A stretch of 64,000 nt of DNA from Phycisphaerae bacterium (GTDB lineage Bacteria > Planctomycetota > Phycisphaerae > UBA1845). The stretch is taken from positions 448,001 through 512,000 of the forward strand of contig CAXXGO010000001.1 in NCBI GenBank assembly GCA_963666835.2, read 5' to 3'. Both the position numbers and the translations under genes were made by a program. Below the pieces are notes generated by a model. That model had not been told where the DNA came from and did not search any database. It saw only the letters and a program-made list of their open reading frames with translations. Below are positions 1 to 55,819 of this stretch, one piece after another. Position 1 is the stretch's first letter; the number at the start of each line of letters is the position of its first letter.

Positions 1-2216
1 GACGACGTCGTTCCCGCCCGGCACGAATACTCCCACTCAGCCTCCGTAGGTAAACGGATCGTTCGACCAGTACGCGCCGACAACTTCCGGCAGAACTCCT
101 GAATCTCGTTCCACGACACGCTCTCGACCGGCCGGCTGTCGCCCTTGAAATGCGACGGATTACTCCCCATCACCGCACGCCACTGCGCCTGCGTTACCTC
201 ATGCTTGCCCATGTAAAACGGTTTGCTGATCCGTACCCGGTGTTGCGGGCCTTCATCGTCGTCGCGTTTCGCCTCTGACGACGGCGAACCCATCAAAAAC
301 TCGCCCGACTCGATCAAAACCAGATCCATCGTCACCCCGCCGCCCACGTCCACGGTCAGCGACGGCTCCGGACCGTAATAACCTTCGATCTTCTCCTTCA
401 GTCGAAGCGCCTCAGAGTGATCGGGTTCGAGCGTCAGCAGCGCCTCGAGAGCCCGCAAAGCGACCTTGCCGTTGGCCTTGCTGTCATTCGCCCTCGCATC
501 CCGCAACAACCCGGCTATCCGCTCACGCCGGTCCCGGGCCGCACGCTCCTGAGGGGACTCCAGCGACTCCAAACGCCCACGCTCCGCCAACGCCGCCGAA
601 TCGCCGGGGTACAATTCCAGAGCCCGACGAATCGCCGACAATCCGCGGTCACGCTCGGAGTACGTCGTGCAACCTCTGGCGGTAGTGACTAGCTGAGAGA
701 ACCTGCCCCGTTTCTCCCGTTCGGCAACCACAGCCGGATCCTCGATTTCGGCAATACGGGCTCGCTCCGCCAACGCCGCCGCGTCGTCAGGGTACAGAGC
801 CAGAGCCTCACGCGCGGCCGTCAAACCCCGATCGCGGCAGGCATACGCGGTACAACCGTTGGCCGTGGCAATCAGCCGCTCGTACTGCTGCCGCTTCTCG
901 CGCTCGGCAACGACAACCGGGTCCTCGATCCGCCCGATACGCTCCCGCTCCGCGATCGCTTGAGGGTCATCGGGGAACAGAAGCAACGCCGCCCGTACCG
1001 CAGAAAAGCCCCTGTCACGATCCGAGTACGCTGTGCAGCCCTTCGCCGTAGCCATCAGTTCATCGAATCGCGCAAGCTTCTGCTGGCCGGGATCAACCAC
1101 CTCCGGGGGAGACTCAGCTTCCTGTTCTTCCGCAGGAACTGCCACCACTGGACCCGATACCGGGGACACGGCCGGCTCTGTATCGGGCGGACGCGACCCA
1201 GCCCCCAGAACCGCCCACAAACCAACGGCGGCCAGTACGACCACGCCCGCGACGGCCAGCGTCCGACGATGGCCGTTACGGCCGACCGCGCGGAGATCTT
1301 GCAGCAGCCCCGCTGCCGAGGCGTAACGGCTGGACGGCTGTCGGTCCAGGCATCGTGCCACGACCGTGTCCCATTGCTTCGATAACCCACGGACAAGCTG
1401 CGACGGAGGTTTGGCCATCCCGGCAGGTCTTTCCCCCGTCACGAGTCGGTACGCGACCACTCCGAACGAGTAGATGTCCGTCCGTTGGTCGATTTCGCCC
1501 GTGCCCTCGCCACGCTGCTCCGGAGACATGTAGTCGTATGTACCCAGGATGCTCGACGCGCTGCTCGTGCGGCGGTTGCCGCTCCCACCCTCGGGGATGG
1601 TGGCCGCGGCGTCGAGCGTGTCCAACGCGCCGTCCGGGGACGGCGAGCGAAGCGTCGGCCGGCTGCCCAAGGAATGTTGCATCGTCGAGTGGATCTGCGA
1701 AAGGATGAACTCGCTCCCGATCGCCTTGGCCAGGCCGAAGTCGGTCAGCTTCGCATCGCCATCGGCGTCGATCAGGATGTTGGCCGGCTTGAGGTCGCGA
1801 TGGATCACGCCCCGCTCGTGGGCGTACTGCAACGCCTCGGCGATCTGAATGGACCACTTCCGCACTTTGGCCTCGGGCAAGCGGCCGTCCGGCTGCTGCT
1901 TGAGGTGCTCGTGCAGGCTCAGCGGCTTGCCCTCCGGACCGGTCACGTAGTCCATGACCAGGAAGTACACCCCCTCGGCACAACTCATGGCGTGAACCTG
2001 GACGATGTGCGGGTGATGCAGGTCGGCCATCACCCGGGCCTCGTCGTAGAATCGGGCGACGAACCCCTTATCCTGGGCCAGCCCGGCCGGCAGGATCTTC
2101 AGCGCGTACTTCTTACGCAGGTGAACGTGCTCGGCCAGATAAACCTCGCCCATCCCACCCGCGCCGATAGATTCCACGACCCGATAGTCGCCGAGTTGTC
2201 TGTCGATGAACGTCAT
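1..2216 (-). CDS. Transmembrane Ser/Thr protein kinase with C-terminal FGE-sulfatase/CLec domain (partial; 3' end and presumed VR lie outside the window)
   Basis: ATG at 2216 ([17 protein letters not shown]), HRDLKPAN and DFG motifs. Near-identical to parts of 17973-20564, 20798-23587 and 2442-5552. Frame at position 1 agrees with the start; not in the ORF track because no stop lies in the window. Confidence 0.9.
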
Positions 2217-2362
2217 GGGCAGTTTCTGCCTTTTGGTCTTTGGCACGACAGTCGCAAATCGCCTCTGGGACCGCAAGATGTCGAGCGGGCGACACATCCC
2301 ATCCCGCCGCGACCCAATCGCCACAGGACCTTGTACGGACCGATCTGTTGCGGGTCAGTCAT
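2213..2362 (-). pseudogene. 49-aa kinase N-terminal fragment ([22 protein letters not shown] plus unrelated tail)
   Basis: First 22 codons copy the start of 2442-5552; its TGA overlaps the ATG of the next kinase (ATGA). Confidence 0.75.
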
Positions 2363-2382
2363 GCTTGCCACTCAACTTCGCA

Positions 2383-2419
2383 CGCCGCTATCAGCGGCGA
2401 CCAGGGGCTCCGCCCCTGG
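2383..2419 (-). promoter_or_regulatory. DGR target-type tandem hairpins downstream of VR
   Basis: CCAGGGGC-GGA-GCCCCTGG followed by CGCCGCT-GAT-AGCGGCG, about 20 nt after the stop codon. Confidence 0.8.
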
Positions 2420-2441
2420 ACCCCGGGAAAAGAGAAAAGAG

Positions 2442-5552
<3,111 letters not shown>

Positions 5553-5740
5553 GCTTACTTTGCGACGTCAAAGCGGCACCTACCGTGTTCAACGACGTCA
5601 TCCACCTCGGTAGTTGTTGCTCAATAGAACTCCGACAGCATCACCACGTAGCGGCTTCTTCGCAAGGTCCGCCGGAAGATCTTCCAAGTACGAAGAGACT
5701 CCAAACATCACGCGAAGCAGATGGAGACCTCGGGGCTGAT

Positions 5741-8386
5741 CTACTCCTCTACCCAGTTCTTGATGTCGTCGCTGCCTTCCTTGCCACCGTCGTCCTTCCC
5801 GTCAGGTCCACAACTCCACAGGTCGAATGCGTGCTCATTCACTTCGCCTGGGCAGCGATACTCGTACGGATTTTTCCATGGATCAACAAGCTCATCCGAC
5901 TTCCCCTCGAGATAGGGCCCTCGGTACCGCTCGTCAGAGGCGAGATTCACCGGAGGAAACAACGCTGCGAGGCCCTGATTAGTGTCCGGGAACACCATCA
6001 TATCCCATCTGTAGGCGGACAGGGCCTTGGCGATTCGACCACTTCGGTGCACAGCAGCTTTGGCCGTATCGATGCGCGCTTCCTCCGACTCGCGCGCCAC
6101 GGTCACGACGGCACCATGACCGGCACGAGGGAAAGCCACAGGGGTTGCAGACTGGCCGCTCCCTGAAACGCGGTGCGGATCACGAGATTGGACATTAGCC
6201 ACAACGCGGAACCCGATGTAGTTGCTGCGGATGTCCGGCCCGGCCATGGCGCGAAACGCACAACTGCAGTAGAGCGCATAGTTGGCCCACGAGCCTCCCC
6301 GGAGAACACGGGACGTTCCTCTACCAGGACCGGCCGGGGCCGTGTCCAGAGAGTTCGCATAGTAGTCCCAGTCATGCCAATCACCGCACCACTCCCAGAC
6401 GTTTCCGTGCATGTCATACAGACCCCACCCGTTAGGCTGTTTCGTACCCACCGCATGCGTATTCCGCCCGGAGTTATCCCAGTACCAAGCATGGTCGCCC
6501 AAGCCCCCCGCCCAGTCTCCGAACGAATACGCCGTCTCCGTGCCCGCTCGGCACGCGTACTCCCACTCTGCCTCCGTAGGTAACCGCATTGTTCGACCCG
6601 CACGACGAGCCAACCACTCGCAAAACGCCGTCGCGTCGGTCCAACTGACGCATGCCACCGGGTGTTCATCGGTCTGGCTGTAACCCGGATCCCGCCAGCT
6701 CAGCCCAGCAACCAACTGCCACTTCCCGTCCTTCCCCGCCCTTGCGTCGCCGTATTTCTCCGCGTCCGTTACGTGCCCCGTGGACTCCACGAAACACCGA
6801 AACTGGCCCACCGTGACCTCACGTGTCGCCATGTAGAACGGCTTGCTGATCCGAACGCGTTGGCGTGGCTTTCCGTCGAAATCTTCGTTGTGCCAGTCCG
6901 TAAACACCAGCTCCACCGCGCGCGAGACCGAGGAGTAGTCGTACGCCTTGGTCGAAAATTCGCCCGACTCGATCAAAACCAGCTCCATCGTCGACCCGCT
7001 GCCCAAGTCGATGGACAGTGTGTTCGAGAGATCGCTTGCCGCGGCCGCATTCTCATGCGTGGCGGGTCGAGAAGCCTGCGTCGATTGCTCGGGAGGAGAG
7101 TCCGTTGCTCTTGGCTTCTTGCCCTGCGATGATTGCGTCATTCCCGGAGAAGGGGTCTCGCGAGTCCTTGGTGCGTTCGATGAGTACTGCTTGGAGAGTC
7201 CTCCGGAATGCCAAACCAGCAACGGGATGACAAACGACGCGACCAGCACCAGAATGTCCCCAAATTCAAGAGTCCTACGGCGTCCTTTCTTCGCGCCAGA
7301 CCGTACCGGCTCTCGCACGACCGCTTCCGCCGCTAAAGCCGGCTCTTTCTGCCCAGTGGGCGCCGTGGCGTCGACCGCAGGCGGTCTCGGCTCTTCACCG
7401 GTCTTCGAAGGTAACTGGACGGGCCTCGCGAACTTCGCCGGCGACTCGAACAGTTCGACAAGCCCCTGCGCGCTGGTTGGGCGATCCTGTTGATCCTTGG
7501 CTAGCCCTCGTCGAATCGCGGCATTAACGTGCGGCGAGACGTCCTCGATCTCCGGGGGCTCAAGGTGCAGGAGTTGATGCCCGATCGAGCCCTGATAGAA
7601 CGGCGGGTGGCCGGCTAGGCATTCGTACAGCGTCGCGGCGAAAGAGTACACGTCCGATGCCTCCGTCGGCGGTTTGCCACTGAACTGCTCCGGCGACATG
7701 TACAGCAGGGTCCCCGACGTCTCCTGGCCGGTGACCCGGGTCATCGAGTCCTTCAGTTCCCGGGCGATTCCGAAATCCAGCACCAGCGCGTGCCCGTCGG
7801 GTGTCACCATGATGTTCGACGGCTTGATGTCGCGGTGCAGCACCGGCGGGGAGCTGCTATGGGCATGGTCCAACGCTTCGGCCACGTCCCTGGCGATCGG
7901 CAGCAGCTCGCCAAGGGGCATCAGGCGATCGGCTTTGCCGTCCAGCAGCTCCTCCAGCGTCTGCCCCTGAATGTACTCCATCACGAGGAACTTGACGTCA
8001 CCGTCGGCGTTGAACGTGTGCAGCCGGCAGATCCGCGGATGAGTGAGCCGCAGGGCGATGGCCGCCTCGCGCTTGAGGCTCTTGATGCTGCGGGGGTTAC
8101 GAGCCAACATCGGCGGCAGGACCTTGATGGCGACCGGCATGTCATCCAGCTCGGTATCCACGGCCTGCCACACTTCGCCCATGCCGCCCGAACCAAGCCG
8201 ATTCCCCACGCGATACCGCCCGGCCAGCACGCGACCCTCGCACAGCTCACCGGCATGCACGGTCCTCGCCCCGTCGAGCGTATCGCCGGCACCCGGCGCG
8301 GCGAGATCATCCAACACCGAGCCGCAGTGCTTGCACTTGACGGCTTGGTCCTGGATCTCCTCGGCGCAGAACGGGCAGGTCTTCAT
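5741..8386 (-). CDS. Zinc ribbon - Ser/Thr kinase - TM - FGE-sulfatase/CLec - GspG-like C-terminal domain; VR-like segment 6215-6286
   Basis: [28 protein letters not shown]. The tail GPYL..DPWKNPYEYRCPG..FDLWSCGPDG..DDIKNW is typical of T2SS pseudopilin G. Confidence 0.9.
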   Translation of the reverse strand: MKTCPFCAEEIQDQAVKCKHCGSVLDDLAAPGAGDTLDGARTVHAGELCEGRVLAGRYRVGNRLGSGGMGEVWQAVDTELDDMPVAIKVLPPMLARNPRSIKSLKREAAIALRLTHPRICRLHTFNADGDVKFLVMEYIQGQTLEELLDGKADRLMPLGELLPIARDVAEALDHAHSSSPPVLHRDIKPSNIMVTPDGHALVLDFGIARELKDSMTRVTGQETSGTLLYMSPEQFSGKPPTEASDVYSFAATLYECLAGHPPFYQGSIGHQLLHLEPPEIEDVSPHVNAAIRRGLAKDQQDRPTSAQGLVELFESPAKFARPVQLPSKTGEEPRPPAVDATAPTGQKEPALAAEAVVREPVRSGAKKGRRRTLEFGDILVLVASFVIPLLVWHSGGLSKQYSSNAPRTRETPSPGMTQSSQGKKPRATDSPPEQSTQASRPATHENAAAASDLSNTLSIDLGSGSTMELVLIESGEFSTKAYDYSSVSRAVELVFTDWHNEDFDGKPRQRVRISKPFYMATREVTVGQFRCFVESTGHVTDAEKYGDARAGKDGKWQLVAGLSWRDPGYSQTDEHPVACVSWTDATAFCEWLARRAGRTMRLPTEAEWEYACRAGTETAYSFGDWAGGLGDHAWYWDNSGRNTHAVGTKQPNGWGLYDMHGNVWEWCGDWHDWDYYANSLDTAPAGPGRGTSRVLRGGSWANYALYCSCAFRAMAGPDIRSNYIGFRVVANVQSRDPHRVSGSGQSATPVAFPRAGHGAVVTVARESEEARIDTAKAAVHRSGRIAKALSAYRWDMMVFPDTNQGLAALFPPVNLASDERYRGPYLEGKSDELVDPWKNPYEYRCPGEVNEHAFDLWSCGPDGKDDGGKEGSDDIKNWVEE

Positions 8387-8411
8387 CAGGGATCTCCTCC
8401 CAAGAGCCGGG

Positions 8412-10259
8412 CTACTGTTTCTTCCCGCACGCGGTGCAGAAGTTGCCGCCCGATTCTAGCGGGGCGTTGCAGTGCGCACAGCACGCACCCGCCTTTCCGC
8501 CCGATTGGGAGTTGACCATCACGTGGGCTCCGCCGCCACCACCGCCCGGGGTCACGATGGTATCCGGCGGCTCCACCGGCCGGGCGCGGGTACCGGCCAC
8601 GTGCCCCATCTGCTGCAGGGCGGTCTGCATAATCCGCTCCATCCGATCGGCGGTATCCGCGGACGCCTCCTTCTGCTCGGCGACGCGCTTCTCGAGCAGC
8701 TCGCGCATCTCGTCGGAGAGACGGCCGTCGGCCTTGTACTTCTCGGCGAGGGCCTGGGCGGCGGCCGGGGAAGCCTCGGCCGTGATCGCAAGGATCTGCT
8801 CCGGGGTGAGGTTCTTCTGACGCTCGAGCTTGGTCAGATCCGCGATCCGGTCACCCGCGGGACCGTCTACAATAGAGAGAAGCGCCTCGACCGTCGCATT
8901 ACTTCGCTCGGCGAGCCGCTTGGCCTCGACCTGCTGGGTCCACTCTTCGCGTTTGCGATCGCGATCGTCCATGCGATCCAACAGATCCTGACCGGCGAGC
9001 GCCTCGGTCATGTCCTGCTCGTGGTCCTTCGCCCGGGTCTCGCGCTGGATGTCGTCGATCTTCCCATCGGTCGCGGCCTCTTCCACGCGCCGCGCTCTCT
9101 GGCGCCGGTGGGCCTCGTCGAGCGCGTCCTCATCGGCCAGTTGTTGCTTGCGCGCCTCGTCGCGTAGGGCGTCTTGAGAGATACCTTCAATCTCGATACG
9201 CCGCAGGGTCTGCTCGCGGTCGCGCTCGTGCTCGAATCGCGACTTCAAGCGGATCATCTCGTCGTCGCGGATGACGTCCTTGAGACCCAGCTCGTGTTCG
9301 GTCTGGCGGATGAAGTCCTCGAGGTCCTTCTCGCTGGTGAACTCGTCCATCTTGTCGGTGGTGAGCACGTCGCGGAGGCGGCGGGTGAGCTGGGCTCGCT
9401 GGTCCTGCAGGTCGATGTCCTTACCGAAGGTCTGCAGCTCGCCCTCTTTGGCCCGTAGTCCTTCGTATGCCTCCCCGCAGAAGTCGACGAAACGCAACTG
9501 GATCAGACTCAACCCGAACCGCGAGAACGTCGTGCGCAAATGCTCGCGAAGCTGGGCCTCGATCTCATACCGGGCGTCGATACTGCCGAACAGTTGATCG
9601 GCCTTGTACTTGAGCACGATGCCCTCGAGCAACATCTGGACCTCTTCGGCAAGGAGGCACTCGAGCTGGTCGAGGGTAACCTGGCCGCGGCCTTTGATGA
9701 GGTTCTTGAACAGGCTCTCGGGATCCTGCACCTGGATCACCAGACGCAAAGACACGCCCACCTCGAACTTGTCCGAAGTCCACAGCCGGCCGTTCTCCAG
9801 ATCGCAGGTGGTGTCGCCGGCGTCCATGATGACGATACTGGCGGGGTTATCGATCATGAAGTTGGTAAGCCGCTGGGCGAACCCGCCGACGTCGTAGCGT
9901 GATTCCTGCAGTTCGCCGGCGAACTTGCCGGACTGGAACACAAGCCCGGTCGTTCCGTGCTCCACGATGAGCGGCTTGACCAGCCACCCCTTGACGTCGT
10001 CCACATCGATCCGGATGGCGAAATCCTCGGGCTGGCGGGCCCAGCGGTTGTGGTCGAACTTCGGCTTGACCGACACGGCCATGTCCGCCCCGCACTGCGG
10101 GCAGAACTTGGCGCTGCTGCGGACGTTGGCGTTACAGCTACCGCAGGGGACCGTTCCTTTCGGGGCGCCAGCGCCGCACTTCGGGCAATAAGTGGCGCCC
10201 TTGCGGACGCGCTGGTCGCAGTTCGGATTGATACATTTGTTCGTTCGAAAACCCATCAC
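8412..10259 (-). CDS. SPFH (band-7)-like domain protein with N-terminal double zinc ribbon, coiled coil and C-terminal zinc ribbon
   Basis: CxxC pairs at both ends; LIVEHGTTGLVFQSGK and FGLSLIQLRFVDF resemble the SPFH core; long E/R/Q-rich helical region. Confidence 0.7.
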   Translation of the reverse strand: MMGFRTNKCINPNCDQRVRKGATYCPKCGAGAPKGTVPCGSCNANVRSSAKFCPQCGADMAVSVKPKFDHNRWARQPEDFAIRIDVDDVKGWLVKPLIVEHGTTGLVFQSGKFAGELQESRYDVGGFAQRLTNFMIDNPASIVIMDAGDTTCDLENGRLWTSDKFEVGVSLRLVIQVQDPESLFKNLIKGRGQVTLDQLECLLAEEVQMLLEGIVLKYKADQLFGSIDARYEIEAQLREHLRTTFSRFGLSLIQLRFVDFCGEAYEGLRAKEGELQTFGKDIDLQDQRAQLTRRLRDVLTTDKMDEFTSEKDLEDFIRQTEHELGLKDVIRDDEMIRLKSRFEHERDREQTLRRIEIEGISQDALRDEARKQQLADEDALDEAHRRQRARRVEEAATDGKIDDIQRETRAKDHEQDMTEALAGQDLLDRMDDRDRKREEWTQQVEAKRLAERSNATVEALLSIVDGPAGDRIADLTKLERQKNLTPEQILAITAEASPAAAQALAEKYKADGRLSDEMRELLEKRVAEQKEASADTADRMERIMQTALQQMGHVAGTRARPVEPPDTIVTPGGGGGGAHVMVNSQSGGKAGACCAHCNAPLESGGNFCTACGKKQ

Positions 10260-10260
10260 A

Positions 10261-10929
10261 TTAGCTCCGATTCGCGGTTCCGGCCGGCCGGAAAGCGCGC
10301 CTGAGTTTCGCCAGGAAGATCAAGAGGATCATGAGAAGGAAGAAGAGGGCCAACACCAACATCGGGAATTGCCAGAACCGGGCGACTGCGTCGCTCCAAT
10401 GGATGAGCGCCTCGGCGGCCTGCATTCCGCTGGTCCAGATGTTCTCGCCGGTTTCGACAACGCCCATGTTCACGATGGCTTTGACGTGCCCCCGCGTACC
10501 CCACAAGTTGGTCGTGTGGTCCCAGATATCGCCGTAGATAATCGCGTCTACGCCTTCCAGCTCTCCGAAACGCTGGACCGTTTCGGGCTTCATGATGTCA
10601 CCCTTACGATCGCCGAACTCGATCTCTCCGGCCAGCAGGTCGAGCCTGGCGTCGCGGACGTACAGCTTGAACGGGCTGCGCGTCACCGCCGCCTCCAAGG
10701 CCGCCGTTACGTAGCCGTCCTCGTCCCCGCGCACGGTGACGACCGCCACGTTCACGACACCCTCTAAACTGGCCTTGTCCAGGTCCGCGGCGATCTGCTC
10801 GACGACTTTGTCGGTGGCCCGTTGGAGAATGTCGTTCTCGTTTGCCAACGCCGGGCCGGCCAGGAGTATCAAGCCCAGCGCCGCGAGGGTTCCCGGTCGC
10901 CGAAGTCTCATAGTTTGGAATCTGCTCAT
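10261..10929 (-). CDS. Exported CsgG/TolB-N-like protein with C-terminal membrane anchor
   Basis: Signal peptide ending ALA, FGELEGVDAIIYG motif, hydrophobic C-terminus followed by RR. Confidence 0.55.
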   Translation of the reverse strand: MSRFQTMRLRRPGTLAALGLILLAGPALANENDILQRATDKVVEQIAADLDKASLEGVVNVAVVTVRGDEDGYVTAALEAAVTRSPFKLYVRDARLDLLAGEIEFGDRKGDIMKPETVQRFGELEGVDAIIYGDIWDHTTNLWGTRGHVKAIVNMGVVETGENIWTSGMQAAEALIHWSDAVARFWQFPMLVLALFFLLMILLIFLAKLRRAFRPAGTANRS

Positions 10930-10977
10930 CGTTATGTCCTTGTGTACTGCCGGACGAGGGCGCGCCCTCACCGGGGC

Positions 10978-11988
10978 CTAGTCAAAGAAGTCCTGATCTG
11001 CTTTGATCACCTTGCCGTGTCGCTCGACGCTTTCGATGCGTACGCGATCACGGCGCAGCTCATCGACGTACGGCGCCAGGAATCGCTCGACATCGAAGCG
11101 GCAGAGCACGTCGTACTCCGCCGTATCCGATCTGTCGTCCCAACGCTCCAGCGAGACATAGTAGATCCCCACGCGTCGCTGCAACCCGACCCGTAAGTCG
11201 TCCGCCTCTCGAAAGTGCCTCAACCCCGAAACCGCGAGCCTCATCCGGACGAGGCTCGTTGCCTCCCACTTGCGGGTGACTTCGTCCGTCAGGTACGCGG
11301 CTAGGTCTTCGGCCGCCTTCTCCAGGGCGTCCTCGCCGGCTTCGGCCTCGTCGAGATCCCGCTGGCCCTTGCGGCGGACGGTCTTCGTGGCAATCTGCTG
11401 GTGCGTCGTGAGGTTGAGCACCTTGCCCCGGAGCTTGCACTTGAACAGGTAGTAGTTGCCGTGTTTGTCGAACTGCTCCGCCTCGCCGTCCATCAGGAAC
11501 GCGAGGTTGCAGTCGTTCTCCGTCCGGAACCGGTCCTGCTGCGCTTCGGACGGCTCGAAGGGCAACCGGTCTGTCATCTCGATCACGTTGAAGCTCAGCT
11601 CGGCCATCTTGTTGGCCAGGACATCTCGCGCGACGGTGGTCGTCTCGACTCCGTCGGGCAGGGCGATCCGCTCGCGGCTGCTGATCATCATCCGCTGCAG
11701 ATTCAGCAGTGCCTTGTGCACGATGTCATGCTTCTGGGCATTCGTATAGGTCGGGCGGATCGGGGCATCGTCGTCATCCGCGATACGATCATCCGGCCTC
11801 GGTTCGTCCCGGTCGGGCTCGGGCGTCGGGTCGGGCTCAGGTGCGGGGTTGGGCTCCGGTTCAGGGGTTCGCCCCTGGTTCTTCTGGTAGTCGTCACCGT
11901 ATCCGATCTGTTTTCCGCTGCATCCGGGCAGGGCGAAGGCGAGAACGACGATCACGCCCCAAGCCGGCCATCGTAGTGAGCACTTCAT
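10978..11988 (-). CDS. Lipoprotein of unknown function with Pro/Glu linker
   Basis: Lipobox LPGC after a hydrophobic stretch; PEPEPNPAPEP linker. Confidence 0.75.
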   Translation of the reverse strand: MKCSLRWPAWGVIVVLAFALPGCSGKQIGYGDDYQKNQGRTPEPEPNPAPEPDPTPEPDRDEPRPDDRIADDDDAPIRPTYTNAQKHDIVHKALLNLQRMMISSRERIALPDGVETTTVARDVLANKMAELSFNVIEMTDRLPFEPSEAQQDRFRTENDCNLAFLMDGEAEQFDKHGNYYLFKCKLRGKVLNLTTHQQIATKTVRRKGQRDLDEAEAGEDALEKAAEDLAAYLTDEVTRKWEATSLVRMRLAVSGLRHFREADDLRVGLQRRVGIYYVSLERWDDRSDTAEYDVLCRFDVERFLAPYVDELRRDRVRIESVERHGKVIKADQDFFD

Positions 11989-12327
11989 GTCTGGCTATCT
12001 CCAATCAACATGGCTGGTTCGTCTCTTATTGATTAGCGGGGGCGGCTGCCACCCGCGAGTCATTACCGAGAACAGGTCTTTCCGGTGGCGGTCTACTTGT
12101 CTTCCGCCGGGGGAGTTACGGGCTCGTTCGGGCCCGGGTGAACCGGTCCATCGCGGGGCGGATCATAATCCACCTTCTCACACCGCTGGTGCGTGCAGCA
12201 CCCGGAAACCGCGAGCGTAGTCACAAACACGACGGCAAGTCTGCCAAGCCGGGCAATGACGTTCATGATCTTGACCCTTCCAAGAGCTCTACGTGGTCAT
12301 TCGTATTCGTTCGGGAGCTGCATCGAA

Positions 12328-13581
12328 TCACGCCAACGGACGCGACAGCATCAGGCCCTTACCGGCCCGCTCCCGAACATCGTATTGGCCCGTTCGGTGC
12401 AACTCGTCGAACGCGGCCCGTAGCCAACTAACGTGGCCGCCGCACTCCTGCGCGGCGTAATCGAGCGAAACACAATCATAGCGACTCACCAGCTCCGTGA
12501 GCTGCTCTCGGATCCGGGTCAACTCGCGGGCCAGCCGCGCCGGAGCCAATAGTGGCCAAAACGCCAGGAGCCGATCGTCATTCTCGTCAAGGTGTACGTG
12601 GTCGGCGTGCAGATCCCACAGGCCGATACCCAGCCGCTTATCCCTGAACGCCGAGCCGTGGTCTGCTTGGGTGATGATCTTGACGGCGGGCTCGCTCCAA
12701 CCGGTCGGCGATCCGATCGACACGACGTGGAACCGATCCTCCTTCCCCGCGCGCTTGCGCAGGTCGTCCAATACCGGGTTCAGCTCGACTTCCCCCAGCG
12801 GCTCTCCGTCGTAGCCTTGAGTCTCGAGTACGTCGGTCCGTGCCAGGAACCTCGCCTCCAACACGAGCCCGCCCTTGGGCTTGCCCCATCCGCCGATCCG
12901 GAGCGTGAACCGGCTGATCGTATTCGCCGGGCCGTGCACCGCCCCGCGAGTGCCGGCCTCCATCACGTGCTTTACCCGCGCGAGGCGCAGGGGTACTGCG
13001 AGCCCGGCGAGGGGATCCGGCAGCTCATTCACGTGCTCCAGCCGCTGGGCGAACGCTCGAACGAACGCCTCTTCCGCCAGCTTGGCCTCGTCCGCCGTAA
13101 CCACCGGCCGACCCTCCCGGCGAAGTCGCTCGACCATCGACCCGAGATGAGGGCGGCTCGGCTCGACCGGAACACCATCTACGCCATCGTCGGCATCCGA
13201 TCGGGTGACGGCCGCGGTGGTCTTACCCGCCCCGTGCGCGGCACACCGCCGGATCTTGCGGACGGCCCAGCAAGCCTGGCAGATACTCAACTCGCATAAC
13301 TCGCACTTGCCCGCGATGGAAAACTCGCTCACGAGACTGGCGCCGCAAGCCCCACACCGCCGCCCTTCACCGGAGGTGAGCCCGGTCCGTCTGGTCTGGA
13401 CGGCGAGCTGCTCTTTCTGCCGTTCGAAGTACTCGTCGAGATCCTCTTCGCGAATCCGGTAGATCCGACCGACTTTGCCGGCCGGGATATCGCCGGCGCG
13501 AACCAGGCGGTAGATGGTCTTGTACTCAACCCCCAGCCGGTCAGCAGCTTCTTCAACCGTGAGAAATTTGCCCATCAGCAT
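12328..13581 (-). CDS. Excisionase-type HTH DNA-binding protein with Cys-rich zinc finger and an unassigned C-terminal domain
   Basis: FLTVEEAADRLGVEYKTIYRLVRAGDIPAGKVGRIYRI; CGAC..CELC..CQAC..CAAH. Start placed downstream of the predicted promoter (13575 is an alternative). Confidence 0.8.
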   Translation of the reverse strand: MLMGKFLTVEEAADRLGVEYKTIYRLVRAGDIPAGKVGRIYRIREEDLDEYFERQKEQLAVQTRRTGLTSGEGRRCGACGASLVSEFSIAGKCELCELSICQACWAVRKIRRCAAHGAGKTTAAVTRSDADDGVDGVPVEPSRPHLGSMVERLRREGRPVVTADEAKLAEEAFVRAFAQRLEHVNELPDPLAGLAVPLRLARVKHVMEAGTRGAVHGPANTISRFTLRIGGWGKPKGGLVLEARFLARTDVLETQGYDGEPLGEVELNPVLDDLRKRAGKEDRFHVVSIGSPTGWSEPAVKIITQADHGSAFRDKRLGIGLWDLHADHVHLDENDDRLLAFWPLLAPARLARELTRIREQLTELVSRYDCVSLDYAAQECGGHVSWLRAAFDELHRTGQYDVRERAGKGLMLSRPLA

Positions 13582-13632
13582 CGCTCGGAAAGTGGTCCAG
13601 CATCGGAGCATCCTGGCTCCCAACGCTCCTGA

Positions 13633-13661
13633 ATCATAACGGATTCCCGGGCACCCTACAA
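13633..13661 (-). promoter_or_regulatory. Putative sigma70 promoter of the HTH gene
   Basis: TTGTAG-17 nt-TATGAT on the minus strand, with an A-tract upstream. Confidence 0.5.
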
Positions 13662-13984
13662 TACTTTTTTGTACCACAATTACCCCCTATTACCTTCCAT
13701 GTTCCCAGATGACTCCGTAAGTCGTTATAAGACCCGGACTTACGAATCCTCGAGTTTCAGCGTTTTTTTGAGGTTTGGTGGCCGGATTCCGGTGGGGCTG
13801 GGGGCAAACCGGCCGGTTGGGGGCCGCCCGGCGGGCGCGACCGCGTCACGTGGGGACAGCTCGGACCGGACCCCGCGGCCGACCCCGGCAAGGCACTCCC
13901 GGGATCCCCAATCCTATGAAGTGCCGACGACTTGGCACCAGAGGTGCAAGAGCGTGGTTCCGCCCTGTCGGGCAGCGTGGGCCG

Positions 13985-15553
13985 TCACATCCCGACTTGG
14001 GCAAGTTCCTCAACGCTCCCTTGCAGCCCGCCGCCGAGCTGAAGACCGGGCGACAGCGGAAACGCGCTGCCGGCCGCGATCGGGACACCGTCGGCCACGA
14101 GGTTGTTCTCGTCGGCTTGGCTCTCTACCCAGAGACGCTCGCCGAGTCGCAGGACCCGCAACTGCCGGCGATCCGCACCGGTCCCGGATACGCGGATCTC
14201 GTTGTCGACACCCGCCCCACAGCCGGCCCAACGGTACACCACTACGTAACGTTCCTCGTTGGTGAGGTTGTCCACCCGCTCGATGAGCAGGGAACGCAAG
14301 CCGAGGCTCTCGGAAATCTGCCACAGAGAGTCGGGCGGGCCCAGCCGGGCGTACCGCTCGGCGGTCACGGCCGCCTCGCCCGCGGCATCGCGGTAGGGAG
14401 TCATCCGCAGCCGCAAGGTCGAGGCCACGTCCACCTCCGCCGGTCTATCCAACGGCAGCTTCACTTCGCCGGTAACGGGTTGCCCGTCCACCCGCGTCCC
14501 GTTCACGGTCTTGCGGTCGGCCAGGTACAGACCGTCGCGCCGCAACGCGATCACGAGGTGCGATTGGCCGATCATCCGAGTCGAGTGATCGTGTTCTTTC
14601 GAACGCGGAACGAGCCGGAGGATTACGTCGTTCTGCTCGCGTTTGCGGCCCATCCGGATCTTGGACTGCCCCAGCAGCAACGTTCGCGTCTCGCCGCCGG
14701 CGCCGTCCCGCAGAATGATCGAGGCCTTGTCGAGCTGCCGCTGAGTCCTGGCCAGCTCGTCGACCAGCCGGATTCCCGCGTCGCGGCGCAGCAGGCTCAC
14801 GCCGTTCCACTGCGCGGGGTAGACCTGCTTGATCAAGTCGTTGACATCGCGGATCTGGCCAGCGGCGACATCTTTGGTCACCTGGTCGCGGACGCTGAGC
14901 CCATAGCCGATGTTGCCCCCGGCGTGCATGCTCGCGTCGATGTTGATCGTCGAGGGGTTCTCGTTTCTGGCCCAGACCTTCAGGAACGGCTGGGCGGTCC
15001 AGACGTGAATCTCGCCGCCGATTCGGAAGCGCAGGGTGATGTCGACCACGTGCTCCCCGGCCAGCTCGGGGACGATCTGAATCCGGTCGTGCCCGTCACG
15101 ATACTCGTTCACGCGAACCACCGGGAACCGGCGCTCGTGCGTCGTGCCCAGCAACTGGCTGGATACCGAGAAAGACACGTCCTCGATGTTCCCCCCGCTG
15201 CGGTTCAGAAGACGAAACTCCAGCGCGCAGGCGTACTTCTCCATGTAGAAGTGGTTGTCGTTGATCTCCAGCTCGATAGGGGGAGTCTCGACGCCAGCTC
15301 CGGGAGTCGCCTCTACCCCGCAGCACGGGTCCCCGGGCTTTCGCGACGCTGCCGGCGCGTCTCCGGGGTCCGGCCGGACGCCCGCTGCCTCCGGTGGGGC
15401 CGGGTCCGTCCGGTCCTCGGCCGTTGCGGGTCCACCGCCTGGTGCGGTACTATCGATTCCGTCGTCCTCGGCCGCCATCAGCTTCTCGCCGCATTCCGTG
15501 CAGAAGCTCGCGGTGTCGTCTTCCGCCGCCGCTCCGCATCTCGGACACTTCAC
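13985..15553 (-). CDS. Zinc ribbon - beta-rich domain - FHA domain protein
   Basis: CPRC..CTEC; FHA motifs IRMGRK..NDVIL..IGQSH..LADRKTVNGTRVDG; possible second degenerate FHA. GTG start after AGGGGAG overlaps the avd-fragment stop. Confidence 0.8.
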   Translation of the reverse strand: MKCPRCGAAAEDDTASFCTECGEKLMAAEDDGIDSTAPGGGPATAEDRTDPAPPEAAGVRPDPGDAPAASRKPGDPCCGVEATPGAGVETPPIELEINDNHFYMEKYACALEFRLLNRSGGNIEDVSFSVSSQLLGTTHERRFPVVRVNEYRDGHDRIQIVPELAGEHVVDITLRFRIGGEIHVWTAQPFLKVWARNENPSTINIDASMHAGGNIGYGLSVRDQVTKDVAAGQIRDVNDLIKQVYPAQWNGVSLLRRDAGIRLVDELARTQRQLDKASIILRDGAGGETRTLLLGQSKIRMGRKREQNDVILRLVPRSKEHDHSTRMIGQSHLVIALRRDGLYLADRKTVNGTRVDGQPVTGEVKLPLDRPAEVDVASTLRLRMTPYRDAAGEAAVTAERYARLGPPDSLWQISESLGLRSLLIERVDNLTNEERYVVVYRWAGCGAGVDNEIRVSGTGADRRQLRVLRLGERLWVESQADENNLVADGVPIAAGSAFPLSPGLQLGGGLQGSVEELAQVGM

Positions 15554-15942
15554 CACCGCGTATCTCCCCTGTATCTCGGGCATGTTGCCCGGTTCTCCCA
15601 ATGCCCCGCCCGGGGCAATGACTGCATGAGCCGGGCGGGATCACAATGTGCATTCGTCTCTTGTGCATTATAGCACGAATGAATCCTCAGCTCGTTGGCC
15701 AGCCGGGTAAGCATCCGGACAACCTGGAGATCGAGATTCGTTCCCGTCAGTAACGCCGCCCGAGTCTCCCTCGGGCTGTACTTGGCGCGAATCAGATCCT
15801 CCAAGACGGTGTACAGACCCTGCTTGAGCCGCGCTCCGATCCCGTAACGGCGACATCGCGGGAACTTCGCCAGCCGATCGATGTACCATCGAACAAGCTC
15901 GCACATACGGTCAATGACGACCAGCTCCTCGTATTTAGCCAT
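15550..15942 (-). pseudogene. avd: Truncated DGR accessory protein Avd (last helix replaced by unrelated sequence)
   Basis: KFPRCRRYGIGARL..LEDLIRA..NLDLQVVRMLTRLANEL matches the Avd four-helix bundle, but the E-x-G-R-M-x-G-G-W helix is missing. Confidence 0.8.
15667..15675 (-). promoter_or_regulatory. Extended -10 promoter (TGCTATAAT) at the avd truncation junction; second copy TGCTATGAT at 17622-17630
   Basis: Consensus TGnTATAAT about 115 nt upstream of the GTG start. Confidence 0.55.
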
Positions 15943-15958
15943 TTTCTTCTCCGCTGTG

Positions 15959-15995
15959 CGCCGCCTTCAGCGGCGGCCAGGGGCTCCGCCTCTGG
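15959..15995 (-). promoter_or_regulatory. DGR target-type tandem hairpins (GGA and GAA loops)
   Basis: CCAGAGGC-GGA-GCCCCTGG (one mismatch) and CGCCGCT-GAA-GGCGGCG. Confidence 0.75.
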
Positions 15996-17508
15996 ACCCC
16001 GGAAAAAGAGAAGAGGGTGAACTCCCCGCCACAACACGAAACCCGCTGCTGGAGAGGCGGCCGTCCGGCCAGTTCCTGCCGCGATTCGCACAACGGCAGT
16101 TGTGCGCATCGATGCTCCACGAGCCGCCCCGGAGAACACGGCACTGCCCACTACCCGGACCGGTCGGGTCCGTGCCTGGAGAATCCGCATAGTAGGCCTC
16201 TCCATACCAGTCACCGCACCACTCCCAGACGTTGCCGTGCATATCGTACAGGCCCCACGGGTTAGGCTGTTTCATGCCCACCGCGTGCGTCTTCTGCCCG
16301 GAGTGCTTGTGATACCAAGCATGGTCGCCCAAACGTCCCGTCGATTCTACGAACGAATACGGCGTCGTCGTCCCCGCCCGGCACGAGTACTCCCACTCCG
16401 CCTCCGAGGGAAGCCGTATCACACGTCCACTATGATCAGACAATCTCTGGCAGAATTCTCGGCAGTCCTCCCACGATACGTTCTCTACCGGACGATCGTC
16501 GCCCCTGAAATGTGACGGATTGTCGCCCATCACTGCCTGCCACTGAGCCTGCGTCACCTCGTATTTGCCCAGGTAGAACGGCTGGCTTATCCGGATGCGA
16601 TGGGGAGGCTTCTCGTCACGGTCTCCGTTGTTCGAACCCATGACGAACCCGCCCGCCGGAATCAGAACCAAATCCATCGCCAGACCGCTGCCAAGATCCA
16701 GCTTAGTGGGCTCAGGGTCGACAATCGCTTCCTGGATGCGCTTCGTGTACTGGGCAATGTCTGCACCACAGCTTCCACAGTAAGCATGGCCCATCCGATT
16801 CTCTTCACCACACGTGGGACACGTCCTCGTTCCAGCCTCCCGGCCTCCCGCATGGCGACGCAGCAGGCTCACGCGGCTCCACTGCGCGGGGTAGACCCGA
16901 TTGATCAGGTCGTTGACGTCGCGGATCTGGCCAGCAGCGACATCTCTGGATACCTGGTCACTGATCTTGTGTCCGTAACCGATGCTGCCCCCGGCGATCA
17001 TGCTCGCATCAAAGATGATCGTCGAGGGGTTCTCGTTTCTGGCCCACACCTTCAGGAACGGCTGCGCGGTCCAGACGTGGAGCTCGCCGCCGATCCGGTA
17101 GCGCAGCGTAATGTCGACCACGTGCTCCCCGGCTAGATCGGGGACAATCGCAATCCGGTCGTGCCCATCACGGTGTTCCTTCAGCCGGATTACCGGGAAT
17201 CGGCTTTCGTGCGTGATGCCCAACAGCTTGCTGGACACCAAGAAGGACACGTCCTCGATGTTGGCACCGCTGCGATTCAAAAGACGGAACTCCAGCACGC
17301 ACGCGTACATCTCCATGTAGAAGTGATTGTCGTTGATCGCGAGCTCGATCGGGGGAGTCTTGACCCCGGCCCTCGGGTGATGCAAACCCGACTCGTCTTC
17401 GGCCGCGACCAGTCCACCGCTCTCGACCGCCACAAGTTGCGCGCCGCATTCCGCGCAGAAGCTGGCGGTGTCATCTTCCGCCGCCGCTCCGCATTTCGGG
17501 CACTTCAC
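15967..17508 (-). CDS. Zinc ribbon - beta-rich domain - zinc ribbon - FGE-sulfatase/CLec protein; DGR target (VR 16045-16116)
   Basis: N-terminal half paralogous to 13985-15553; LPSEAEWEY, DMHGNVWEW, RGGSW..GFRVV; no signal peptide or TM seen. Confidence 0.9.
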   Translation of the reverse strand: MKCPKCGAAAEDDTASFCAECGAQLVAVESGGLVAAEDESGLHHPRAGVKTPPIELAINDNHFYMEMYACVLEFRLLNRSGANIEDVSFLVSSKLLGITHESRFPVIRLKEHRDGHDRIAIVPDLAGEHVVDITLRYRIGGELHVWTAQPFLKVWARNENPSTIIFDASMIAGGSIGYGHKISDQVSRDVAAGQIRDVNDLINRVYPAQWSRVSLLRRHAGGREAGTRTCPTCGEENRMGHAYCGSCGADIAQYTKRIQEAIVDPEPTKLDLGSGLAMDLVLIPAGGFVMGSNNGDRDEKPPHRIRISQPFYLGKYEVTQAQWQAVMGDNPSHFRGDDRPVENVSWEDCREFCQRLSDHSGRVIRLPSEAEWEYSCRAGTTTPYSFVESTGRLGDHAWYHKHSGQKTHAVGMKQPNPWGLYDMHGNVWEWCGDWYGEAYYADSPGTDPTGPGSGQCRVLRGGSWSIDAHNCRCANRGRNWPDGRLSSSGFRVVAGSSPSSLFPGSRGGAPGRR

Positions 17509-17897
17509 CACCGCATATCTCCCCTGTATCTCAGGCACCTTGCCCGGTTTTCCCAATGCCCCGCCCGGGGCAATGACTGCATGAGCCGGGCGGGATCGCA
17601 ATGTGCGTTCGTCTCTTGTGCATCATAGCACAGGTGAATCCTCAGCTCGTTGGCCAGCCGGGTCAGCATCCGAACAACCTGGAGATCGAGATTCGTTCCC
17701 GTCAGTAACGCCGCCCGAGTCTCCCTCGGGCTATACTTGGCGCGAATCAGATCCTCCAAGACGGTGTATAGACCCTGCTCGAGCCGCGTTCCGATTCCGT
17801 AGCGATGACATCGCGGGAACTTCGCCAACCGATCGATATACCAGCGAACAAGCTCGTATGCACGGTCGATGACGACCAGCTCCTTGTGTTTAGCCAT
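17505..17897 (-). pseudogene. avd: Truncated Avd, second copy
   Basis: Near-identical to 15550-15942 with the same truncation point. Confidence 0.8.
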
Positions 17898-17913
17898 CTT
17901 CTTCTCCGCTGCA

Positions 17914-17950
17914 CGCCGCTTTCAGCGGCGGCCAGGGGCTCCGCCTCTGG
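17914..17950 (-). promoter_or_regulatory. DGR target-type tandem hairpins (GGA and GAA loops)
   Basis: CCAGAGGC-GGA-GCCCCTGG and CGCCGCT-GAA-AGCGGCG. Confidence 0.75.
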
Positions 17951-17972
17951 ACCCCGGAAAAAGAAAAAAGAG

Positions 17973-20560
<2,588 letters not shown>

Positions 20561-20564
<4 letters not shown>

Positions 20565-20710
20565 GGGTAGTTTCTGCCTTCTGGTCTTTGGCACGACAGT
20601 CGCAAATCGCCTCTGGGACCGCAAGATGTCGAGCGGGCGACACATCCCATCCCGCCGCGACCCAATCGCCACAGGACCTTGTACGGACCGATCTGTTGCG
20701 GGTCAGTCAT
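20561..20710 (-). pseudogene. Kinase N-terminal fragment, second copy
   Basis: Near-identical to 2213-2362 with the same ATGA overlap. Confidence 0.75.
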
Positions 20711-20738
20711 GCTTTCCACTCGACTTTTCTCCGCCGCA

Positions 20739-20775
20739 CGCCGCCTTCAGCGGCGACCAGGGGCTCCGCCCCTGG
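20739..20775 (-). promoter_or_regulatory. DGR target-type tandem hairpins (GGA and GAA loops)
   Basis: Perfect CCAGGGGC-GGA-GCCCCTGG and CGCCGCT-GAA-GGCGGCG. Confidence 0.8.
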
Positions 20776-20797
20776 ACCCCGGGAAAAGGGAAAAGAG

Positions 20798-23587
20798 TTA
20801 AGGGGAAAACGGTAAAGTCCCCGCCACAACCCGGAACCCGACGTAGTCGTTGCGGAGGCCCGGCCTGCACCAGCGGCGATTCGCACAACGGCAGTAGCGG
20901 GCGAGGCTGAGCCACGAGCCGCCCCGGAGAACACGGTATTTGCCACTACCAGGTCCGGTCGGATCAGCGCCCGGGGAATCCGCATAATAGTCCTCTCCGC
21001 ACCAATCACCGCACCACTCCCAGACGTTCCCGTGCATGTCATACAAGCCCCACGCGTTGGCTGGGAAACTGCCAACAGACGTGGTCTTCTCGCGGTACAC
21101 ACCCTTTCTTCCTTCACCGTACGGGTGATTCCCGTCATAGTTCACCTGATCCGGCGAGATCGTGCTGCCAAAATGGAACGGGGTCGTCGTCCCCGCCCGG
21201 CACGAGTACTCCCACTCAGCCTCCGTAGGTAAACGGATCGTTCGACCAGCTCTCTCAGACAGCTTCCGGCAGAACTCCTGAATACCGTCCCACGATACCT
21301 GCTCCACCGGAAGATCGTCGCCCTTGAAATGCGACGGATTACTCCCCATCACCGCACGCCACTGCGCCTGCGTTACCTCATGCTTGCCCATGTAAAACGG
21401 TTTGCTGATCCGTACCCGGTGTTGCGGGCCTTCATCGTCGTCGCGTTTCGCCTCTGACGACGGCGAACCCATCAAAAACTCGCCCGACTCGATCAAAACC
21501 AGATCCATCGTCACCCCGCCGCCAAGATCGATCGTTTGCTCACGGAGGGCGAGCCAGGGTTCCAGTTTTCGGCGCAGGTCACCCGCTATTCGATTCTCAC
21601 TGTCGAGTGCCAGAGCTGCGTCGATCTCTGCAACCGCGCGGTTCGCCGCAGCCTTCTCGCTCTCCGAGCGTCGGGCCGTCGGCCCAGCATCGAGATTCAA
21701 CCCGACATCGGCAATGATCTTCCGCGAGGCGGACAGGTGCCCCTCGATCTTGCCAACCGCGGTTTCGGTGATCCTGAGAGCTTCCTCGTACTTGCCGGCC
21801 GCCTGCCCGTACAACTTTCGAGCTCCAACGAAGTCCGTTCCAGCGCCCTGAGCCCGGCGCATCAGCTCCTGGGCATCGTCCAGAGCGGTCGAGGCGAACT
21901 TCCAGCCATCGCCAGTATTCGCTCGATCCTGGGCGGCCAGGGCTTCCCTGCGCGCCGCAGCTATGATGGCTTCACCCTGTTGCCGGGTCTCCTCAATCGC
22001 GAGAGTGAATCGCTCGATCGCCCGCCGGAGCAAACTCGTGGCCTCCACTCGATCGGACGTTTCCATCGCCTGTTCTTCGAGCTTCCTGGCCTGCGCGAAA
22101 CGAACGTGTGCCCACGTTTCGACGTCCAATGCAGCGGCCTCCCCCTTGGCCGACTCAAGCTCCTCTTGAGCCTGCCGAAACGCCTCTATCTCCGACTTGA
22201 TCCTCCGTGCGGCCTGCTCGGCTTCGCCGAAGACCCGGCTCGCCTCATCGTACTTGGCGACGGCATCGCCAAAGGAAGTCAGAGTGTCGTGGGCTTCGCC
22301 CTCGGCCAGGAGTTTTTCGGCGTTGGAGAGCACATCGGGTGTGTGAACCTGCGCATCGGCAGCTCGCGCCGCTTGCCGAGCGGCAAGAGCAGCGATCCGC
22401 GCACGGCTGGCTTGATCCGCCGTGGCCGTGGTGGTTTCCTCGGTGGCGGGAGGTTTGTCTTGGATATCCGGTGGTCGTACCGTCGATTGACGATCCGGTG
22501 TGCTACGCGGTGGATCCTGCTGTTGGACAACTCGGGCATTCGATGGTGGCGCAGGAGTACTCGACCCAACACCCGAGATCGCCCAGACCCCGACGGCGGC
22601 CAGTACGATCACCACCGCAAGAGCCAGCATCCGGCGGCGGCCGCTACGGCCGACCGCGCGGAGATCTTGCAGCAGTGCCGCTGCCGAGGCGTAACGGCTG
22701 GACGGCTGTCGGTCCAGGCATCGTGCCACGACCGTGTCCCATTGCTTCGATACCCCCCGGACAAGCTGCGACGGAGGTTTGGCCATCCCGGCAGGTCTTT
22801 CCCCCGTCACGAGTCGGTACGCGACCACTCCAAACGAGTAGATGTCCGTCCGTTGGTCGATTTCGCCCGTGCCCTCGCCACGCTGCTCCGGAGACATGTA
22901 GTCGTATGTACCCAGGATGCTCGACGCGCTGCTCGTGCGGCGGTTGCCGCTCCCACCCTCGGGGATGGTGGCCGCGGCGTCCAGGGTGTCCAACGCGCCG
23001 TCCGGTGACGGCGAACCGAGCGTCGGCCGGCTGCCCAGGGAGTGCTGCATCGTCGAGTGAATCTGCGATAGGATAAACTCGCTGCCGATGGCCTTGGCTA
23101 AGCCGAAGTCGGTCAGCTTCGCATCGCCGGTGGAGTCGATCAGGATGTTGGCCGGCTTGAGGTCGCGATGGATCACGCCCCGCTCGTGGGCGTACTGCAA
23201 CGCCTCGGCGATCTGGATAGACCACTTGCGGACCTTCGCCTCCGGCAGGCGGCCGTCCGGTTGCTGCTTGAGGTATTCGTGCAGGCTCAGCGGCTTGCCC
23301 TCCGGACCGGTCACGTAGTCCATGACCAGAAAATAGACCCCCTCGGCCTGGCTCATTTGGTGGACCTGGACGATGTGCGGGTGATGCAGGTCGGCCATCA
23401 CCCGGGCCTCGTCGTAGAAACGGGCCACGAACCCCTTATTCTGCGCCAGCCCGGCCGGCAGGATCTTCAGCGCATACTTCTTGCGTAGGTGGACGTGCTC
23501 GGCCAGATAAACCTCGCCCATCCCACCCGCGCCGATAGGCTCCACGATCCGATAGTCGCCGAGTTGTCTGTCGATGAACGTTCCCAT
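20798..23587 (-). CDS. Ser/Thr kinase - TM - helical region - FGE-sulfatase/CLec; DGR target (VR 20840-20911)
   Basis: Kinase motifs, TM (MLALAVVIVLAAVGVWAI), FGE motifs. Confidence 0.95.
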   Translation of the reverse strand: MGTFIDRQLGDYRIVEPIGAGGMGEVYLAEHVHLRKKYALKILPAGLAQNKGFVARFYDEARVMADLHHPHIVQVHQMSQAEGVYFLVMDYVTGPEGKPLSLHEYLKQQPDGRLPEAKVRKWSIQIAEALQYAHERGVIHRDLKPANILIDSTGDAKLTDFGLAKAIGSEFILSQIHSTMQHSLGSRPTLGSPSPDGALDTLDAAATIPEGGSGNRRTSSASSILGTYDYMSPEQRGEGTGEIDQRTDIYSFGVVAYRLVTGERPAGMAKPPSQLVRGVSKQWDTVVARCLDRQPSSRYASAAALLQDLRAVGRSGRRRMLALAVVIVLAAVGVWAISGVGSSTPAPPSNARVVQQQDPPRSTPDRQSTVRPPDIQDKPPATEETTTATADQASRARIAALAARQAARAADAQVHTPDVLSNAEKLLAEGEAHDTLTSFGDAVAKYDEASRVFGEAEQAARRIKSEIEAFRQAQEELESAKGEAAALDVETWAHVRFAQARKLEEQAMETSDRVEATSLLRRAIERFTLAIEETRQQGEAIIAAARREALAAQDRANTGDGWKFASTALDDAQELMRRAQGAGTDFVGARKLYGQAAGKYEEALRITETAVGKIEGHLSASRKIIADVGLNLDAGPTARRSESEKAAANRAVAEIDAALALDSENRIAGDLRRKLEPWLALREQTIDLGGGVTMDLVLIESGEFLMGSPSSEAKRDDDEGPQHRVRISKPFYMGKHEVTQAQWRAVMGSNPSHFKGDDLPVEQVSWDGIQEFCRKLSERAGRTIRLPTEAEWEYSCRAGTTTPFHFGSTISPDQVNYDGNHPYGEGRKGVYREKTTSVGSFPANAWGLYDMHGNVWEWCGDWCGEDYYADSPGADPTGPGSGKYRVLRGGSWLSLARYCRCANRRWCRPGLRNDYVGFRVVAGTLPFSP

Positions 23588-55814: not shown

Positions 55815-55819
55815 ATCGC

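Follow-up and report, generated by a model that had tools for sequence, protein, structure and literature searches.

A tandem array of predicted receptor-kinase genes carrying retroelement-type variable regions, with remnants of the cassette, in a Phycisphaerae bacterium

Genes and variable regions of the array

The stretch analysed here (the window) consisted of 64,000 bp from a Phycisphaerae bacterium and corresponded to C1:448001-512000, where C1 is a contig of assembly G000 (6.02 Mb, 7 contigs, 92% complete). Its left part carried an array of paralogous genes, mostly for kinases, whose products share an FGE domain of C-type lectin (CLec) fold with a short variable region (VR). The array is not a complete diversity-generating retroelement (DGR); it is a set of DGR targets with remnants. 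Judged from the sequence pattern, a DGR origin of the VRs is almost certain.

An earlier note on this DNA had described five 72-nt segments, and all five were confirmed on the reverse strand at 20840-20911, 18015-18086, 16045-16116, 6215-6286 and 2484-2555. Column alignment placed each without gaps as 24 codons between TGG and GGG, and the last four codons quoted for each were correct. Two extra copies, C1:447685-447756 and the more decayed C1:441497-441568, were located to the left of the window; the six-copy set used below consists of the five window VRs and the former copy. The VR ended 10 residues before the stop codon in four copies and 22 residues before it in one, and two VRs were internal, the one at 6215-6286 lying 154 residues before the stop. 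Among the five window VRs, 31 of the 72 columns varied (codon positions 1/2/3: 15/14/2), in agreement with the reported concentration at positions 1 and 2 (29/31).

Pfam analysis revealed a kinase together with an FGE-sulfatase domain in 2442-5552, 5741-8386, 17973-20672 and 20798-23587, and zinc ribbons with FGE, without a kinase, in 15967-17601. The proposal that all five genes encode receptor kinases thus held for four, as the gene of the 16045 VR had neither a kinase nor a transmembrane (TM) segment; hydropathy analysis gave no hydrophobic TM peak in this protein. On the reverse strand, 20798-23587 encoded a predicted Ser/Thr kinase, single TM segment, helical linker and FGE/CLec target of 929 aa. 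The gene at 17973-20564 (863 aa from ATG) was predicted to join kinase, TM and TPR-like repeats to the FGE/CLec end, and that at 2442-5552 (1036 aa) to join kinase, TM and linker to it. Kinase, TM and FGE/CLec were followed by a GspG-like fusion at 5741-8386, where the VR was internal and no hairpin was present; this gene has probably been retired as a DGR target. The gene at 15967-17511 was assigned zinc ribbon, beta domain, zinc ribbon and FGE/CLec, and a short deletion after its VR had removed its stop codon. The 3' end of this region (16020-16044) was unlike that of the other copies and resembled template-side, not target-side, ends of related cassettes. At 1-2324 lay the 5' part of a kinase-TM-FGE/CLec gene whose VR is the copy at C1:447685-447756.

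Three kinase-FGE genes ran from window position 2324 down to C1:440303. Not every array paralogue carries this VR, because the kinase-FGE gene at C1:444820-447525 ended in unrelated sequence. Recombination had made the array a mosaic in which kilobase blocks were 85-92% identical and some genes were chimeric. The proposed TM segment between kinase and variable domain was predicted in all seven kinases of the array, as a Kyte-Doolittle peak of 2.2-2.6 with basic residues on its N side, between the kinase and the FGE domain. The Gly loop, catalytic Lys, HRD..KP.N, DFG and PEQ motifs were intact in all four full-length window kinases. The CLec/FGE fold claimed for the variable domain was supported by a PF03781 match and by TvpA (PDB 2y3c), the best solved-structure match of the C-terminal domain by sequence (E 4e-33), which aligned through the VR motif. 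An AlphaFold model built from a 6-row alignment was poor (pLDDT 43) and was not used. No cysteine was conserved among the variable codons, where the FGE catalytic cysteine pair would presumably fall.

Variation at template adenines

Mean pairwise differences inside the VR at codon positions 1/2/3 were 10.9/9.3/1.1 in the six copies. Two upstream blocks of 24 codons gave 2.9/2.7/6.1 and 2.1/1.9/5.7, and the equivalent region in 9 control family orthologues gave 7.1/6.5/11.6. These controls, drawn from 14 non-self loci, form one orthologue group, and the fetched loci gave no match to avd or to a reverse transcriptase (RT). By this comparison of codon positions, the VR pattern is neither chance nor ordinary divergence. 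Near-identity of the upstream FGE sequence across several copies could not be upheld: identity was confined to the copies at 2484 and C1:447756, and other pairs differed at 19-31 of 150 upstream bases. The VR columns outside the A-sites were near-identical in all pairs (0-4 differences in 44), whatever the divergence of the flanks.

The earlier note had deduced one shared AAC-rich template with 28 mutable adenines. A shared template was supported by templates of relatives, taken from two loci of the same order (L058 and L063) and from metagenome locus L101, the organism's own template not being in the assembly. The count of adenines may need to be raised, as codon 4 position 3 varied and the templates of L101 and L127 carry A there; this site may be a 29th template adenine. 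The restriction of VR variation to template adenines was borne out with these templates. With that of L058, 27/29 A columns varied, compared to 4/43 other columns; the corresponding values were 25/28 and 6/44 for L063, and 23/26 and 8/46 for L101, with which 38/41 invariant columns matched. When the control orthologues were set against the L101 template, 17/26 A columns and 35/46 others were variable. Apart from codon 4 position 3, the A-site pattern was broken by isolated changes, most of which fell in the two hairpin-less copies.

A search with the predicted-template motif retrieved 9 metagenome loci, each of which contained a DGR-type RT. Template motif scans of the genome-contig and viral-contig collections gave no match, and Avd queries of the same collections gave no related locus. 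L101 was an intact metagenome cassette with the C-terminal part of a kinase-TM-FGE target followed by avd, RT and template. Over 84 residues, its kinase C-lobe shared 68% identity with the 17973 kinase, and its Avd was 58-60% identical to the avd stubs described below. Intact cassettes of the same order and L101 shared with the array the gene order up to avd, the pyrimidine tract, the hairpin type, the template family and the spacer 3' end, and L101 also shared the kinase-TM-CLec target family. Unlike the array, these cassettes keep RT and template, and the fetched stretches hold one target and not a tandem array. At L061:9400-9496 (genome G016), a near-unmutated template-like region stood in target position ahead of a hairpin and a truncated avd; no target gene preceded it, and the locus lacked an RT.

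At the 168 A-sites (28 sites in six copies), A was present 68 times, T 47, G 33 and C 20 (40.5/28.0/19.6/11.9%). The order A>T>G>C matches that reported for the RT of phage BPP-1 in vitro (PMC7826257), and a chi-square test for a difference in base use gave p 0.17. Tyr (13), Leu (11) and Ser (11) were the commonest residues at the 72 AAC-type codons; Tyr and Ser are described as favoured DGR products (PMC12875486).

Remnants of the cassette, hairpins and genomic setting

The template and DGR RT that the earlier note expected elsewhere in the genome were found in relatives, as described above, and not in this genome. Ongoing hypermutation was not supported either, the assembly being without template and DGR RT and the cis cassette carrying a deletion scar. 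An invariant-column scan of both strands of the 7 contigs revealed VR-type copies only and no A-rich template, and blastn of the relatives' templates against the assembly matched only VRs. A DGR-type RT (IGxxxSQ) was not found in the assembly by Pfam, by tblastn with two DGR RTs or by a hidden Markov model of 17 DGR RTs. Beyond non-DGR RTs, these searches gave a single 33-aa DGR RT stub at C1:625682. Of the 14 Pfam RT matches, 13 belonged to one group II intron family (the single member scanned exceeded the TIGR04416 cut-off), and the last was an RT-Cas1-like fusion adjacent to a CRISPR array; both kinds of enzyme were rejected as donors, with 27-30% identity to DGR RTs. The CRISPR array adjoining the fusion (C6:1808107-1813437, L011) contained a block of four duplicated spacers.

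Two avd stubs were present on the reverse strand at 17505-17897 and 15550-15942. Each was a 130-aa open reading frame (ORF) in which the first 87 or so codons encode Avd and continue in frame into sequence derived from the spacer. The junction was the same in both and lies near 17630-17640 in the former, and each ORF ended overlapping the start of the next gene. Both gave partial matches to Pfam bAvd and NCBIfam NF033474, below cut-off. Remnants of the 3' end of the DGR-RNA spacer, at 17559-17615 and 15604-15660, formed the right side of the RT/template deletion scar. The remnant was 79-86% identical over 35-60 nt to the post-template spacer in 6/11 cassettes and had no match in the other 5. 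Since the spacer-end motif lies 1375-1396 nt past avd codon 85 in five intact cassettes and 30 nt past it here, about 1.35 kb with the avd end, RT and template has been deleted. The locus L075 showed a similar avd-to-spacer junction at another point. Loss of RT and template beside avd is common: a survey of 279 genomes of the order gave 28 non-self avd loci, 12 with an RT match within the fetched 1.5 kb flank and 16 without, some of these 16 having contig ends inside the flank.

The two stub units differed at 20/258 bases in avd and 11/135 after it. No full-length Avd with more than 50% identity was present among 67 candidates of 71-228 aa; an Avd from a 3,177-base contig (P0005) was identical to the 17505 stub at 84/87 residues and ended at 90 aa. 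A third avd, at 36534-36833, was over the family cut-off, fused and without RT. A CRISPR spacer at 57028-57064 sharing 18 exact bases with 15557-15574, beside the scar, was compatible with a chance match (1/69 real vs 1/690 shuffled spacers at 18 nt).

A GC-rich hairpin downstream of the VR, a candidate DGR homing element, was perfect in 3/7 copies, carried one mismatch in 2/7 and was absent in 2/7. Perfect 8-bp stems with a 3-nt loop were located on the reverse strand at 20757-20775 (z -2.98) and 2401-2419 (z -3.68), and stems with one mismatch at 17932-17950 (z -1.10) and 15977-15995 (z -1.16). The VRs at 2484 and C1:447756 were surrounded by 968 identical bases (561 upstream and 407 downstream), beyond which identity fell sharply. 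Nevertheless, these two VRs differed at 20/28 A-sites and one other site, within the range of 15-23 A-sites for all pairs. Identical flanks around differing VRs indicate that rewriting came after a very recent duplication or conversion.

Alleles in other samples were compared using contigs of 4/7 sequencing runs aligned at 80% likeness; these alignments were noisy, and contigs drop rare variants. Among the matches listed, the 6215 and 16045 VRs each had exact contigs in run X2 (possibly the source sample), and the 18015 VR was matched exactly in X6, where the match reached no more than 28 bases past it on one side. Other letters were present at 2551 and 2555 in runs X1, X5 and X6 and were indistinguishable from paralogues or other organisms. 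Another assembly with the 20798 gene (P0009), which may derive from the same sample, had the same VR. No other-strain allele was seen among the homologues, the best reaching 70% for the CLec domain, and for residues 330-863 only own-genome paralogues exceeded 59% among the best 120 of thousands. Contigs of run X1 about 2% different from window 7808-13976 were observed, a second strain of the element.

The other genes of the array lay on the same strand as the targets. A paralogue of the 15967 gene at 13985-15556, identified by its shared domain and by Pfam, has FHA in place of CLec and is a candidate phosphothreonine reader. An excisionase-like helix-turn-helix (HTH) protein at 12328-13677 (Pfam/NCBIfam) is a candidate regulator. 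Three linked genes at 8412-11988 encoded a 336-aa protein of unknown type, a second such protein of 236 aa with a C-terminal TM segment, and an SPFH/band-7 protein with zinc ribbons.

The array lies in an element of about 44 kb that is bounded by the tmRNA gene (C1:429418-429772) and, at 25453-25477 (forward strand), by an att-like repeat of the 3' end of this gene, which falls inside the end of the integrase gene 25446-26927. Att-like tmRNA 3'-end copies were found at C1:429745, 473453, 514388 and 605711. This suggests, from the sequence of these sites, that several islands may be stacked at the tmRNA gene.

The genome held two other gutted DGR loci, at window 35200-36833 and C1:624600-625800. 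On the forward strand, the decayed locus at 35200-37271 contained an FGE-like gene with a C-terminal sorting-type tail, followed by the near full-length third avd, here joined to an unrelated coding tail. The gene at 37546-41871 (forward strand) repeats the 5' part of the 35200 gene with a different variable-looking end. The second locus, 20 kb after another att-like site, consisted of a P-loop NTPase-like ORF (presumably of KAP type), an FGE fragment and the 33-residue DGR RT start. A CRISPR-Cas locus at 48136-58200 contained GSU0054, Cas3, Cas4-Cas1 and 25 spacers; the spacer at 56384 matched C6:384869 exactly over 35 bases and is a possible self-target.

Origin and present state of the repertoire

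In the best explanation of these features, the array is a repertoire of target genes, shaped by a DGR and carried by an island integrated at the tmRNA gene. The sequence pattern shows that an ancestral cassette of target, hairpin, avd, RT, template and spacer rewrote the binding face of the C-terminal CLec domain at template adenines. Through tandem duplication and domain shuffling, the same CLec/VR end came to lie on several receptor-type kinases and one presumably cytoplasmic zinc-ribbon protein, and the pattern of A-sites shows that each copy was rewritten independently from one template. The scar shows a deletion of about 1.35 kb that took the avd 3' end, RT and template. The kinases would be single-pass receptors with the kinase inside and the variable CLec outside. 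On binding a ligand, the kinases would cluster and become active, with a possible read-out by the linked FHA and HTH proteins. The antigen-receptor-like role proposed in the earlier note is an inference; phage or cell-surface molecules as ligands are guesses by analogy. Since the assembly holds no other donor, the repertoire is most likely fixed in this strain by now, a view held with modest confidence, though the last rewriting would have been very recent.

Several observations weigh against parts of this explanation. Perfect hairpins at three copies are as expected of live targets and not of a frozen repertoire. Such stems are needed for homing, with 4-nt GRNA loops in phage DGRs (PMC3240598), whereas the loop here has 3 nt. 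The stubs showed 7 amino-acid changes compared to a neutral expectation of 13.2 (p 0.001), which does not suit a simple dead remnant; the stub may have been under purifying selection, or sequence may have been exchanged with an intact avd. Should the common scar be older than the 8% divergence between the stub units, the latest rewriting needed a further donor, now lost or unassembled, and a donor may be missing because the assembly is 92% complete in 7 contigs. In addition, the receptor topology was predicted by hydropathy only. A less favoured view is that an intact RT and template, unassembled, on another element or in part of the population, continues to diversify the array in trans. Besides the kept hairpins and the incomplete assembly, this is favoured by the zero flank divergence around a fully rewritten VR and by the mosaic avd differences (17/20 within codons 1-43), which could reflect exchange with an intact avd, and Thiohalocapsa PB-PSB1 provides an example of trans activity and of structural variants with intact RT and template (PMC10907252). 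However, 6.02 Mb yielded neither template nor DGR RT, the candidate Avd proteins included no close full-length relative, P0009 (possibly the same sample) carried an unchanged VR, and the two other DGR loci of the genome are also gutted.

The VRs could also be older, the identical flanks of the 2484/C1:447756 pair having arisen by gene conversion, unequal crossing-over or assembly polishing. The mosaic structure with its chimeric genes and the abrupt fall of identity beyond the flanks agree with this, but separate tracts would have to stop exactly at both VR edges, and the near-identity of non-A columns in all pairs is as expected of a common donor; this origin is improbable. Ordinary paralogue divergence with positive selection on the binding face, without any DGR, is scarcely credible. 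Kinase-FGE is a common protein architecture, also without DGRs, and binding faces can evolve fast; nevertheless, third positions are frozen inside the VR and not upstream or in the control orthologues, avd, hairpin and spacer remnants flank the genes, and real templates predict the variable columns, which already contradicts such divergence. Returning to the DGR-made repertoire, a more speculative and rather unlikely extension is that of a hit-and-run DGR, which would act in bursts on freshly duplicated receptor-kinase genes of the island and then be shed, leaving several fixed receptors; the kept hairpins and the selected truncated Avd would allow rewriting in trans by an incoming RT/template cassette.

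Kinase-CLec proteins are the commonest cyanobacterial DGR targets, and remote targets and an RT-less paralogue occur there, for which removal of the machinery after selection was proposed; one supplement row lists kinase, TPR and transmembrane regions for remote targets of Anabaena WA102 (PMC7517822). The array resembles these targets in its N-terminal Hanks-type kinase, C-terminal CLec domain with VR, and VR-homologous paralogues with no RT nearby. It differs in that the cyanobacterial targets are mostly predicted cytosolic and the remote ones dispersed, whereas here six to seven tandem copies lie in one island, as single-pass kinases, with no donor in the assembly and a visible deletion scar. 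In Thiohalocapsa PB-PSB1, multi-locus DGRs are reported that include degenerate loci, act in trans and have targets with CLec domains in the periplasm (Dore et al. 2024, PMC10907252). Several targets per template class, degenerate loci without RT or template, and cytoplasmic and periplasmic CLec sensors with a proposed antigen-sensor role are points of likeness. In contrast, each Thiohalocapsa class keeps one complete locus while none was found here, and its targets are mostly vWA/NACHT/STAND conflict proteins and not receptor-type kinases linked to FHA, SPFH and HTH genes. TvpA of Treponema denticola, an FGE-type CLec variable protein like those of the array, is a surface lipoprotein without kinase (same source). 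Other published work describes planctomycete conflict systems that contain FGS/FGE domains, and targets annotated as kinases (PMC7159879, PMC11661182). The portions covered of a Bacteroides preprint, PMC8144416, PMC8867640 and PMC10053308 contained nothing on receptor-kinase arrays. The literature searches revealed no paper in which receptor-type kinase targets stand in a tandem array and the cassette is deleted, although subscription papers and supplements may describe such a case.

The DGR-made array clearly belongs to a known kind, and what is new is its arrangement. Kinase-CLec targets, remote targets and decayed loci have all been published before, which lessens the initial surprise. The array provides six or seven natural variants of one binding scaffold, mostly wired to the same kind of kinase output. 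Nearly all differences between these paralogues lie in the binding face, so that their comparison could show what cellular DGR targets bind and what benefit they bring. Such arrays are missed by RT-anchored surveys, and this single locus records a DGR life cycle of duplication, independent rewriting and deletion of RT and template.

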